The notes under the pieces are model-generated. The model was not told the origin of the DNA. It saw only the letters and a list, made by a program, of their open reading frames with translations, and made no database searches. A program made the translations under genes and the position numbers. DNA of 50,785 nt from Parachlamydiales bacterium (GTDB lineage: Bacteria > Chlamydiota > Chlamydiia > Chlamydiales > Parachlamydiaceae): positions 1 through 50,785 of the forward strand of contig JAGVJP010000112.1 in assembly GCA_020051075.1 (NCBI GenBank), read 5' to 3'. This document shows, one piece after another, positions 301-50,785 of this stretch. How positions within the stretch are numbered: the stretch's first letter is position 1; each line of letters opens with the position of its first letter.

Positions 301-558
301 GAGGATGGAGAGGTATGGACAGGTATGGACGGAAATGGACTATATGGACAGGTATGGACGGAAATGGACTATATGGACAGGTATGGACGGAAATGGACAG
401 GTATTATGGACTAATATGAACATGTATATCACGTTAACCATGTAATTTCTATCCATATAGTCCATTTTCGTCCATAAAGTCCATACCTGTCCATAAAGTC
501 CATACCCGTCCATACCTGTCCATTTTTGTCCATTTAGTCCCTTTCCGTTCGTTTCCAT
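301..558. repeat. Palindromic element family A (ATGGAC 9-10-nt units / GTCCAT units)
   Basis: 301-412 tandem NNNATGGAC(N) units, AT-rich spacer, 451-558 tandem GTCCATNNN units (inverse complement); lies between divergent genes. Confidence 0.9.
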
Positions 559-570
559 TCGATTTTTGCA

Positions 571-1755
571 ATGAATTTGCGAACAAATCTTTTAAAATAT
601 TTGGGAGAAAAGTATGATACTACCCAGAACTCTAATAGGACAACGCTGATGCTTTTAGCCATCTTAATTTTCGCCAGTATCTCTCTTCATGCAATGACAG
701 ATTGTGGAGAGAGAGAAGGTGCTCAAGATCAAATGAGTTCTTCTATACACGATTTTTTTAACGCCTCTTTTATTAATGAAGAACACATTCCACTCATCCT
801 CACTCCAAAAGACGATAATAGAACAATGGATGAGGTTAAAATTTGGATACAAAATTACCCTAATGAGTTAATCGATTTAATCGATCGATACGGCGCATTA
901 TTACTTAGGGGTTTTCCAGTTCATGAAATAGATGAATTTTCCGAAATCATTGAGAGTATTTTTCAAGAGCCCTTAATAGACTATCGTGGAGGAGAAGAGT
1001 TAAGAAAAAAGGTTTGTGAAGGGATCTATTCCTCGGCAGAAATTCCACCACAATCTTATATCCCTCTCCACAACGAATTATCTTGTACATATCGCCCACC
1101 GAGATACATAAGTTTCTTCTGTGACATTCCTCCAACACTAGGAACAGGGCAAGCAATTCTAGGAAAAACTGCTCAGATATCTCAGGCGATCGAGAACCAT
1201 TCGATGGTTTGGGATTTTTTCAATGGAGAAACGATTAAATATATCTCTAGACATCCTCCAGAAGGCAATTATTATAGCAGTATTAACGAAACTCACAAAA
1301 CATGGCAAGAAGTTTTTGAAACAACTAACCAGGAAGACGTCGAAGCCTTATGTCTAGAAAAAGGGTTTGATTTCACATGGTATGGAGATTGGTTGGAAGT
1401 TTATAGATATGTGCCGGCAATCAAAGGTCCTGACGAATATTTTGAGTTTCCCTATTGGTTCAACCAACTCCATCTTTATCATTTAAACCCTAGGCTATGC
1501 GGAGGATGGTTTAATTATCAGCTTACCCGCCTGTTATACCTCTACCCTCACACAAAACCTTATGATGTAGAACTCGCAAATGGCACACTCATTCCACGGG
1601 AAATCGTCTACACGATCTATGATGTTCTCGAGGAAAATATGATTGTGATTAAGTGGCAGGAAAAAGATGTGCTCATGATCAACAACAACACAACGCTTCA
1701 TGGTCGTTTGTCTTATAGCAAAGAAGAAAGAATTCTAATCTCAATGATCGAATAA
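571..1755 (+). CDS. TauD/TfdA-family Fe(II)/2-oxoglutarate dioxygenase (clavaminate synthase/SyrP-like); true start may be 648
   Basis: GALLLRGF, IPLHNELS (HxE), FFCDIPP, WFNQLHL, WQEKDVLMINNNTTLHGR motifs; hydrophobic leader MLLAILIFASISLHA. Confidence 0.85.
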   Translation: MNLRTNLLKYLGEKYDTTQNSNRTTLMLLAILIFASISLHAMTDCGEREGAQDQMSSSIHDFFNASFINEEHIPLILTPKDDNRTMDEVKIWIQNYPNELIDLIDRYGALLLRGFPVHEIDEFSEIIESIFQEPLIDYRGGEELRKKVCEGIYSSAEIPPQSYIPLHNELSCTYRPPRYISFFCDIPPTLGTGQAILGKTAQISQAIENHSMVWDFFNGETIKYISRHPPEGNYYSSINETHKTWQEVFETTNQEDVEALCLEKGFDFTWYGDWLEVYRYVPAIKGPDEYFEFPYWFNQLHLYHLNPRLCGGWFNYQLTRLLYLYPHTKPYDVELANGTLIPREIVYTIYDVLEENMIVIKWQEKDVLMINNNTTLHGRLSYSKEERILISMIE

Positions 1756-1763
1756 CACATAGG

Positions 1764-2123
1764 ATGTTTATGTTAATGTTCCCTATATCCGTTTTGATCT
1801 TCTCTCTGGTCTCAATATTCAGCTCTCAGCTGTTAATGTCTTCTGAAGGCTCTTCATTGGACTCACAAAAAAATATCGGGGGCAATCAAACTGCGCATGA
1901 AAAGGCAACGAAGCAAAAGCCTCCTCATTCTAAGGCAGACAACAACGAATTCGATGATGATGACTGTGAAATGGATGAGGAAGAGGACGAAGACGACGAT
2001 GACGATGACGATGATGATGATGATGATGATGATGATTTCTCTGAGGATGAAGATGAAAACGATTTAGATGACGATCTGGCATTCGAAGATGACGAATCCG
2101 ACCTCGATGACGACGATTGGTGA
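1764..2123 (+). CDS. Small protein with hydrophobic N-terminus and very long Asp/Glu tail
   Basis: Follows the dioxygenase by 8 nt; mixed GAT/GAC/GAA codons in the acidic run suggest real coding. Confidence 0.65.
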   Translation: MFMLMFPISVLIFSLVSIFSSQLLMSSEGSSLDSQKNIGGNQTAHEKATKQKPPHSKADNNEFDDDDCEMDEEEDEDDDDDDDDDDDDDDDFSEDEDENDLDDDLAFEDDESDLDDDDW

Positions 2124-2124
2124 G

Positions 2125-2505
2125 ACAGGATAAACAGGATAAGCATCAGGCTAACTCGCTTTTCGTGCCCCTGCCCGTGCCCGTGCCCGATTGTTCTTTA
2201 TCGTGCCCGAATTTGTAGTGAACGGTAGGGATATTCCAGAGTTTCTCAGACAATTTCGGACACTCGGGCTCGTTCTCGAAAAGGGACACTCGGGCTCGTT
2301 CTCGAAAAGGGACACTCGGGCACGGGCAGGGGCACGAAAAGGGAGTTAGCCTGATGCGTATGGGATAGACAGAATAGGGAAGATAAATTGGTTAGATTTG
2401 CCTAAATTTTCTATCTTTCTTATCCTGCCGCGAAGCGATCCTGCCTATCCTGTTTTGTCCTTTTTGCTTATCCTGTGTAATTGTTGTGGCAAGTTGCAGC
2501 CCTGC
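2125..2505. repeat. Composite palindromic element: family B (CAGGATAGG) arms enclosing a family C (GTGCCC) element
   Basis: ACAGGATAAACAGGATAA directly after the stop at 2123; inner about 40-bp inverted repeat bounded by GCATCAGGCTAACTC (2143) and GAGTTAGCCTGATGC (2357); then B-type arm ATCCTGCCGCGAAGCGATCCTGCCTATCCTG. Confidence 0.9.
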
Positions 2506-48942: not shown

Positions 48943-49068
48943 ATCCCTCCTTGCCTTAAAATTTTCACTATAGTCACGGAGGTGATAATGTCAAAAAAAT
49001 TATTTAAGTATCGAAATAGACAGAGAATTTGCTACAATGGTGGGTATTTTATTTACCCAAGTATTGAG

Positions 49069-49737
49069 ATGTTAGATCAGATTAAAAAAAATTCAACTTT
49101 ACAACTTATTGAGCTATTCGGCAGTATTCAAGGAGAAACCAGCTACAGCGGACTCCCTACAACTTTTGTTCGGTTAGCTGCTTGCAATCTCCGCTGCACA
49201 TGGTGCGATACGACCTATTCATTTGGGAAAGGGGTGACTTGGGAACTTGAAACAATCATCGAAGATGTTCAAAAACGGGGGCATCCCTATGTTTGCATCA
49301 CAGGGGGCGAACCGCTTCTGCAAAAAAATGTCTATCCCTTGATGGAACAGCTTTGTGATTTAGGGTTTAAATTAACCATCGAGACGGGCGGGTCGCTCTC
49401 AACGGCATCGATTGACCCAAGGGTTGCAACGATTTTAGACGTCAAATGTCCTGGCAGCGGGATGAGTGAAAAGAACGATTGGTCGAATTTATCGCGGCTT
49501 AAGCCATCCGATGAAGTGAAATTCGTTCTCGCAGACGCCAATGACTACAAATTTGCTAAAGAAATCTGTCAGACCTATTCTCTCTATCAAAGGGAACGTT
49601 ATCCCCTATTCTCCCCTGTCTTTGGGATGCTCGATCCCAAAGAATTGATCACATGGATGCTAGCTGATCAATTGCCTGTAAGATTAAACCTACAGATCCA
49701 CAAATTTATCTGGGATCCTTGCACAAAAGGGGTTTAA
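49069..49737 (+). CDS. queE: 7-carboxy-7-deazaguanine synthase (radical SAM)
   Basis: F.SIQGE, FVRLAACNLRCTWCDT, TGGEPL, IETGG, QIHK; adjacent to queC. Confidence 0.94.
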   Translation: MLDQIKKNSTLQLIELFGSIQGETSYSGLPTTFVRLAACNLRCTWCDTTYSFGKGVTWELETIIEDVQKRGHPYVCITGGEPLLQKNVYPLMEQLCDLGFKLTIETGGSLSTASIDPRVATILDVKCPGSGMSEKNDWSNLSRLKPSDEVKFVLADANDYKFAKEICQTYSLYQRERYPLFSPVFGMLDPKELITWMLADQLPVRLNLQIHKFIWDPCTKGV

Positions 49738-49739
49738 TC

Positions 49740-50396
49740 ATGAAAAAAGCGATCATTTTATTGAGTGGCGGCGTTGACTCAACGGTCATTCTAGCATCGG
49801 CATTGTCTCAAGGGTTAACCTGTCACACACTCTCTTTTGATTATGGACAACGACATCTCATCGAATTGGATGCCGCAGCAAAAATAGCCGCTTACTATGG
49901 AGTCAGGAATCAGGTCATTCGCATCAATCCTGACACGTTTGGCAAGGATACATTCGGCAAATCTTCCCTAGTTGAGAGCACGTTAAAGGCCCCTCGGAAC
50001 CGTTCTTTAGATGAAATCTCAAGCAGCGGCATCCCCAACACCTACGTGCCGGCACGCAACACGTTATTCTTATCTTATGCGTTAGCGATCTGTGAAATCC
50101 ATGGGGCACAGGAGATCCATTACGGGGCAAACGCCTTAGATAACTCAGGGTATCCTGACTGCCGCCCTCAATATGTCCAGGCGTTTCAACAGATGGTCAA
50201 CTATGCGACTAAACAGTCGGTTGAAGAAACCCCTCCGCAGATTGTGACCCCGCTTATTGCGATGACTAAGCAAGAAATCTTTGCTTTAGCCCTTGCATTG
50301 AAAGCTCCTTTAGAGTTGACTTGGAGCTGCTACCAACCGACTGTCGATCAAAAGCCTTGCGGTGCGTGCGATGCCTGCATCCTGCGAACCATATAA
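49740..50396 (+). CDS. queC: 7-cyano-7-deazaguanine synthase
   Basis: SGGVDS, FDYGQRH, TYVPARN, YPDCRP, TWSCY..CGACDAC. Confidence 0.96.
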   Translation: MKKAIILLSGGVDSTVILASALSQGLTCHTLSFDYGQRHLIELDAAAKIAAYYGVRNQVIRINPDTFGKDTFGKSSLVESTLKAPRNRSLDEISSSGIPNTYVPARNTLFLSYALAICEIHGAQEIHYGANALDNSGYPDCRPQYVQAFQQMVNYATKQSVEETPPQIVTPLIAMTKQEIFALALALKAPLELTWSCYQPTVDQKPCGACDACILRTI

Positions 50397-50555
50397 CCTT
50401 CCATTGAAGATTTAACGCAAATCAGAGGTTAGGTTGGTTCGAGCCTGTTGGAATGGACAGGCATACGCATCAGTCTAGAACCCTTGCCCCTTCAGGCAGC
50501 GATATGAACGTTGGACCTACCCAGGGGGTTGCCCTTACCATTACCCATTTTTTCA

Positions 50556-50785
50556 GCGCGAAGCGTTTGGAGTGCGGAAGTCCTCTTCCGCTTTATCGAC
50601 GAATAGCATTGATAAGAGCTTATGGATAGATTATAGTTAGTTTTAGGCGATAGCACCAGACGTGGATAAGCTTGAGAGAAAAGTAAGAGATACTGAACGC
50701 TGCGCGAAGCGGTAGAAAAATTCAAAAGACACGAATGTCTCAAAAATTGATCTAGAATAAAGCGAAAGAGGACTTTCGCACTCCA
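50556..50785. repeat. Family E REP-like units (two, inverted; second cut by the window end)
   Basis: GCGCGAAGCGTTTGGAGTGCGGAAGTCCTCTTCCGCTTT at 50556 and AAAGCGAAAGAGGACTTTCGCACTCCA at 50759 match the 20297-20393 arms. Confidence 0.9.

Follow-up and report, generated by a model that had tools for sequence, protein, structure and literature searches.

What are the palindromic elements that recur between the genes of a Parachlamydiales genome, and what has multiplied them? The window analyzed here, a stretch of 50,785 nucleotides, is the whole of contig C36 (GenBank JAGVJP010000112.1) of a metagenome-assembled genome (MAG; GCA_020051075.1) of 2.94 Mb in 133 contigs (the smallest of 2605 nt), with 43% GC. 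An initial annotation, made from the sequence alone, had described at least seven families of hairpin elements in it, A to G, and had taken them for non-autonomous elements, each served by a trans-acting protein encoded elsewhere. We found that the arms of each hairpin family are also the arms that frame a particular clade of small genes. The hairpins are therefore very probably internally deleted derivatives of gene cassettes. Below, G000 is the MAG under study, other G numbers are compared genomes, and C numbers are contigs of the MAG. Gene positions came from a simple gene caller of our own (2384 genes in the genome); relatives' cassettes and co-occurrence were examined in 200 genomes of the order.

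Seven hairpin families recur throughout the genome

All seven families were recovered in the window, and their positions agreed with those first reported either exactly or to a few tens of bases. Fourteen of the window elements folded far better than shuffled sequences (z of -5 to -22 each; -16.7 for the element at 11240-11450). When the whole genome was scanned with arm models, 56 to 577 matches per family were obtained, and the reversed genome gave 0, 4, 14, 0, 0, 0, and 0. In total, the arm models marked 582 loci covering 86,434 bp, or 2.9% of the genome. The number of loci was 213 for B (both arms in 117), 118 for E, 97 for F, 48 for A, 46 for G, 44 for C, and 40 for D. Scarcity, which the initial annotation had named as a reason to give up a mobile origin, was thus not observed.

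The common design proposed for A, B, D, F, and G, a purine-rich arm, an AT-rich spacer, and the inverse arm, was confirmed by period and composition. The arm periods were 9 to 10 nt in A, 9 in B and D, 8 in F, and 8 to 9 in G, with left arms of 64 to 75% purine and spacers of 62 to 73% AT. Family C differs, with a period of 6 and the pyrimidine arm leading, and family E is non-periodic. Carriers of the B core motif were mostly Chlamydiae genomes. An inside-out B type ("b," pyrimidine arm first) with a short fixed linker occurred at about 85 loci; in relatives, arms with this inverted arrangement frame some GxxExxY and suffix genes (see below; L122 and L153). The arms of B and E share a 9-base GC mini-hairpin, 342 of whose 387 genomic copies lie inside elements, and relatives' B arms have a small GC hairpin of different sequence at the same place. 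At least 10 further repeat families were noted beyond A to G, within 796 repeat regions in the genome; one remnant lies at about 33185-33210 of the window.

Each arm type frames its own clade of small genes

Versions of the elements that carry an open reading frame (ORF) were found for all seven families. In the order's genomes, B, F, and G arms frame genes for GxxExxY nucleases, C arms frame a four-helix-bundle gene, A and D arms frame two clades of a four-helix-bundle-plus-suffix protein, and E goes with RAYT. The partners of the periodic families match TIGR04256, TIGR02436, and TIGR04258. The pairing of periodic inverted arms with GxxExxY and four-helix genes, which the initial annotation had mentioned for other bacteria, was thereby borne out.

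Three such arrangements were seen in the MAG itself. A GxxExxY gene on C100 is framed by B arms, and a four-helix-bundle gene on C93 by C-type arms. On C99, a RAYT ORF (82.8 bits on NF047646, against a cut-off of 80) is followed by E, as a remnant only, beside its own gene. The four-helix-bundle assignment was supported by a match to PDB 2gsc (E of 5e-9); a second such gene, on C13, has no upstream arm. The spacer of a G element on C18 matched the N terminus of a G-type GxxExxY protein (56% over 32 amino acids; E of 2e-6) and, to judge from this match, is the relic of such a gene with its first codons kept. Several cassettes have arms that reach into the coding sequence, over its first or last codons.

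For the GxxExxY proteins, 50 of the 244 matches in the order's genomes were fetched, and 48 of 51 loci, our own gene included, gave a row in the tree. By arm pattern, these were 37 G, 5 B, 3 F, and 3 with none (45/48 with B, F, or G). The B-armed proteins formed a deep, long-branched clade (support of 97/98); one row labeled G also belonged to this clade and has a G element downstream. A first four-helix tree held no suffix proteins and was uninformative. A FastTree tree, with arms labeled by eye, was used for A and D, for which 18 of 21 TIGR04258 matches were read. The 8 A-armed rows formed one separate clade (1.000), and 9 of the 10 other rows had D or D-like arms. C arms were paired with one TIGR02436 subtype, and the E tag adjoined 12 of 16 RAYT relatives. 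Other four-helix-bundle subtypes in the order (L123-L143) had other arm types, including 7-nt periods, none of them among A to G.

ORF sets between distant arms at C30, C63, C4, C79, and C38 were considered as cargo and rejected as ordinary genes. Toxin-antitoxin-like pairs lie between distant element arms at C79:30769-31306 and C38:67916-68853, and a GIY-YIG search gave one long protein.

Elements of the window

The elements of the window are as follows, with the strand given where one was assigned.

301-552: family A hairpin without a gene (z of -14.9); relatives' partner is the A clade of the four-helix-bundle-plus-suffix protein (TIGR04258)
2122-2500: composite of a short B left arm, the K motif, a complete C element (2140-2360), the K motif, and a B right arm (2405-2481)
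5695-5985: family B hairpin at the 3' end of rarA, whose stop codon lies in the left arm
9075-9362: family B hairpin (z of -21.6); the apbE stop codon lies in the left arm
11242-11444: family B hairpin between convergent genes
14258-14279, plus strand: F-like left-arm remnant ahead of the D element, identified by eye
14286-14510: family D hairpin; relatives' partner is the D clade of the four-helix-bundle-plus-suffix protein
20282-20408: family E repetitive extragenic palindromic (REP) doublet, tag ends inward
22462-22684: family C hairpin, its spacer 87% like the C spacer at 2194-2261; the partner is a TIGR02436 four-helix-bundle gene
24911-24960, plus strand: K motif, then a lone C left arm
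24979-25163: family F hairpin, partnered by a subclade of GxxExxY that has one inserted residue
25172-25265: family G hairpin; the partner is the commonest GxxExxY clade
30275-30315: inside-out B-type hairpin (b)
33909-34170: family B hairpin; the stop codon of a methyltransferase gene lies in the left arm
41335-41362, plus strand: lone C right-arm fragment, identified by eye, below the model threshold
45677-45776: family A hairpin between divergent genes
50455-50785: K motif, a further repeat module, and, truncated where the contig stops, a long E doublet whose tag ends point outward, as in a REPIN

Every element first listed was thus present, although the list had omitted the hairpin at 30275-30315, the F-like remnant at 14258-14279, and the K sites (about 2136, 2350, 24911, and 50462). 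The element at 2125, first assigned to B, does have B arms, but a C element is nested inside, and only the right B arm scored in full. Three neighboring features were also noted: a small toxin-antitoxin-like gene pair with a PIN domain (17698-18302), an Asp/Glu-rich ORF of 119 amino acids (1764-2123), and an ORF of 2323 amino acids (34196-41167), the last two without a Pfam match.

Repeat abundance follows the matching gene

We next compared repeat numbers with gene presence for families A and C. The threshold for a genome to count as A-rich was 20 A matches, and that for C-rich was 14 C matches. An A-type gene was found in 7 of 9 A-rich genomes and in 2 of 191 others, and a C-type gene in 7 of 10 C-rich genomes and in 10 of 190 others. 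In the crossed control, a C-type gene occurred in 1 of 9 A-rich genomes and an A-type gene in 2 of 10 C-rich genomes, neither of which was significant. Repeat abundance therefore mostly tracked the gene of the same family rather than that of the other family.

Copying, nesting, and differences between relatives

Spacers common to distant loci (39 of 81 B spacers at 75% identity or more) indicate that whole elements have been copied. Elements also nest symmetrically: 12 nested pairs were found, against 2 side by side and none interleaved. These 12 are not independent, since 7 come from five loci of a single composite, a three-layer symmetric D-J-E unit of about 350 to 400 nt (C63:646, C63:1985, C110:556, C76:8304, and C116:6009).

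Could the host have done this copying? The hairpins would then be cassette-derived sequences multiplied by arm recombination or gene conversion or by template switching at hairpins, with the genes as passive cargo and source of the arms. Several observations fit. Nested composites were copied as a whole with their unique flanks, as in the D-J-E unit at its five loci and in G elements with shared flanks on C6, C79, C85, and C88. The arms of B, F, and A match their own partner arm better than those of other copies, the K motif joins many left and right modules, and families without a partner gene are abundant in the MAG. However, host copying accounts neither for arm sequences that follow the protein clade over long distances nor for the first occupation of sites behind stop codons, and we regard it as rather unlikely.

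Contigs of a 93-95% relative (found in two studies) and of a relative at about 86% were aligned to the window. In the former, about 197 nt of the D element (14286-14510) are missing; the outer right arm remains, and this difference was rejected as an empty site and taken as a deletion. At 298-555, one contig of the ~86% relative has a different sequence of 90 nt where the window has the 258 nt with the A element. Contigs of the 93-95% relative also cease to match the window at 309, 540, 2138, and 2440, with no bridging contig, which is suggestive support for A and the nested C only.

Transposons and an intron at the arms

An unassembled insertion sequence (IS) was represented by 22 left and 14 right ends at contig ends of the MAG. 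The K motif, with no more than one mismatch, precedes 21 of the left ends. Homologous ends in G019 flank a transposase gene of the IS110 family (DEDD; PF01548 plus PF02371; L336). The transposase gene was not assembled in G000, according to a PF02371 search; a metagenome scan and a search for the junction pattern in 201 genomes were unsuccessful. Among seven related copies inspected, a B-type arm was the flank in 5, one had another left flank, and one yielded no ends. The loci of this IS include contig ends L038 and L039 in G000 and, in relatives, L336, L337, L342, L338, and L340.

The region downstream of the transposase gene is non-coding and has a common stem-loop and two segments that match both target strands in 5 of 5 aligned relatives; in G142, target and matching segment have changed together. 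Only a short inverted match was seen near the IS ends, where subterminal inverted repeats of 11 to 13 bp would be expected of IS1111. From these sequence features, the element at K would represent an IS1111-type lineage with guide-like segments that inserts in B-type arms, and K itself looks like a variant of the B arm. A group II intron-type element, present in single copy (L290:650-2660, on C1), encodes a 445-amino-acid reverse transcriptase (RT), the only one in the MAG. On its 3' side it is flanked by an F right arm, and a piece of F arm is found 35 nt ahead of where the intron presumably starts.

GxxExxY genes were also found on a transposon, possibly of the IS5/IS903 type. All 20 copies fetched from G103 and G120 (L075-L102) carry the gene with one G arm, a right arm. 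Each of these genomes has at least 16 to 18 copies, and a second end was not found. Self-mobility of the multi-copy GxxExxY gene in G103 and G120 was thus rejected, the gene being a passenger. The same transposon end, with a relic of a GxxExxY gene, is found on C101 of the MAG (L349).

Such passengers raise the question of whether one shared enzyme, a RAYT or that of an insertion sequence, moves all families, with the GxxExxY and four-helix genes merely carried along. The G-armed transposon agrees with this, as does the mini-hairpin common to B and E, the two most abundant families. That mini-hairpin is nevertheless absent from the arm models of A, C, D, F, and G, ordinary copies have no bounding transposon ends, and abundance goes with the matching gene rather than with that of another family. 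We therefore consider a single shared enzyme improbable.

Position at gene ends

The eight convergent junctions of the window with a spacer were reported as occupied and the other three as abutting, which was correct for the window. Occupancy in the window is, however, unusually high for this genome: among all 250 convergent gaps of at least 30 nt, an A-G element was found in 132 and none in 118; at this rate, the chance of 8/8 is 0.006. Of all junctions, 16% are convergent, and convergent gaps hold 14% of the free intergenic sequence. Against this background, B (88/247) and F (27/85) were enriched at convergent junctions and E weakly so (12/48), but C, D, and G were not, and A leaned to divergent gaps (22/46; P = 0.03). 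The orientation bias looked for thus held for some families only. B elements lie a median of 10 nt from stop codons, and of the 122 gene 3' ends next to a B element, 39 run into it; three window genes have a stop codon supplied by a B arm. Elements lie near stop codons but about 90 to 180 nt away from start codons.

The convergent enrichment of B and F and the closeness of B to stop codons would be expected if the hairpins were kept mainly as terminators or RNA stabilizers, with positions set by selection. Domestication as terminators had been suggested as a possibility, but none of the 12 terminator-like sites (short GC stem plus U run) in positions 1-15000, the part of the window scanned, lies inside any element. 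Moreover, the bias is missing for A, C, D, and G, the 118 empty gaps are left over, at one convergent junction most of D is gone from the close relative, and avoidance of promoters yields the same pattern of positions. This explanation is very improbable as the main one, and an RNA role of the elements is secondary, if there is any.

Another route through RNA would have RNase III cut out the stem and an RT, together with Avd-like four-helix proteins, reinsert it. Long stable stems close to transcribed 3' ends, the RT in the MAG, and a parallel in Coxiella, as far as the available part of that report goes (PMC4990558), are in its favor. The sole RT is, however, of the group II intron type, A leans to divergent gaps, and the families partnered by nucleases would be left unexplained; we give this route little credence.

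A proposed role of the matching protein in copying

Weighing the above, we lean slightly towards the reading that the hairpins are deleted cassettes whose copying was aided in trans by the matching protein. The protein would recognize the periodic arms, and elements would be copied to new sites. For B, F, and G, the GxxExxY nuclease may supply the cut. RAYT would serve E, as for known REPINs. The four-helix-bundle proteins of A, C, and D, which have no known catalytic site, may instead be adaptors through which an enzyme is borrowed. In its stronger form, GxxExxY nucleases and Avd-like four-helix proteins would be dedicated movers of their own hairpins, making no target duplication and preferring the loops of older hairpins, and would form a new class of mobile DNA with RNA-guided parasites; this we hold to be possible rather than probable.

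Several observations weigh against copying in trans. Among 176 solitary complete elements, no pair reached 90% identity, and no signs of current movement were seen in the genome. The proposed comparison of orthologous junctions gave two window sites that differ in relatives but no clean pre-insertion (empty) site in the relatives compared. The sole multi-copy filled cassette found is borne by a transposon. F arms are confined to one GxxExxY subclade, which also includes G arms. Genes of the A, D, F, and G types were not found in the MAG, although it has 48 A and 97 F loci, and no close C-type gene was found in G191 (339 C matches) or G179 (87). Of the A-type genes in A-rich genomes, 3 of 7 look broken. 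Finally, the co-occurrence is also expected if the gene is a passive source, and it was obtained from kin genomes, all fragmented MAGs, with thresholds set after the counts had been seen.

Two of these points call for caution. Near-identical copies were possibly missed, since identical copies would interrupt the assembly; of the 266 contig ends, 124 fall at the end of an element or IS. Likewise, assemblies drop genes boxed in by repeats, as the 22-copy IS unassembled here illustrates, so the apparent absence of partners from the MAG should be read with care. No excess of direct repeats was found for any family at the model-defined edges, from which the true edges may differ. Most copying in the MAG looks old, and four families (A, D, F, and G) appear orphaned. 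The initial proposal of non-autonomous elements with trans-acting proteins is thus partly supported, by the filled versions, the high copy numbers, the two window sites that differ in relatives, and the abundance of repeats with the matching gene; the action of the protein is what we infer, and partners for A, D, F, and G were not found in the MAG.

Comparison with known systems

Miniature inverted-repeat transposable elements (MITEs) are internally deleted, bounded by inverted repeats, and multi-copy. The elements described here share these features, the internal deletion very probably. They differ in that no target duplication was detected, the partner is not a DDE transposase, and the periodic arms pair over 40 to 100 nt.

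The nearest systems are REPIN-RAYT (Bertels and Rainey 2011, PMC3116915), in which extragenic inverted doublets have many empty copies per gene, and TIRtrons (Di Nocera 2013, PMC3733652), as far as the available parts of these papers describe them. Inverted doublets with spacers, a gene flanked by the same repeats, and insertion in or beside existing copies are common to REPIN-RAYT and the present elements. Family E, many of whose loci are cut by contig ends, fits directly, with its inverted doublets, a RAYT gene, and the tag beside RAYT in relatives; it is an ordinary REPIN and a new member of this system. In A to D, F, and G, by contrast, the arms are periodic, there is no REP tag, and the partner is a PD-(D/E)XK nuclease or a four-helix-bundle protein and not a HUH tyrosine transposase.

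A, C, and D also resemble the intervening sequence (IVS) of the Coxiella 23S rRNA gene, described, in the part of the report available, as having terminal inverted repeats, heptamer repeats, an S23p ORF, and an RNase III cut (PMC4990558). In both, a four-helix-bundle ORF lies between inverted repeats, with short tandem repeats and a long stem. Here, however, the elements are intergenic and not in an rRNA gene, their empty copies number in the dozens, and their periods are 6 or 9 to 10 instead of 7. An Rfam search of the window gave no match. The IS at K resembles IS1111 elements, whose seekRNA comes from a downstream non-coding region with two target-matching segments (PMC11187229, in part): its relatives insert in repeats and have the same non-coding arrangement. 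Compared with IS1111 and with the IS known to target REP sequences (PMC1525189, likewise in part), the target here is a periodic GxxExxY arm rather than a REP or attC, and the inverted repeats are short.

No description of the periodic families was found in literature searches, which did not extend to subscription papers and supplements; the nearest was the ORF-bearing rRNA IVS. An arm-protein link was found in print for one of the seven types only, E. For GxxExxY and four-helix-bundle proteins, widespread families of unknown function, the present pairings name a specific partner in DNA and open the way to testing it directly. A host-dependent bacterium can bear 3% of repeat DNA that rewrites gene ends, and both an RNA-guided IS and a group II intron use these repeats as landing sites. 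In one genome, six arm-protein pairings stand beside a normal RAYT-REPIN pair as an internal control. What this MAG adds to the known systems is the six pairings together, a control for specificity, apparent orphans, and an IS that targets the arms.

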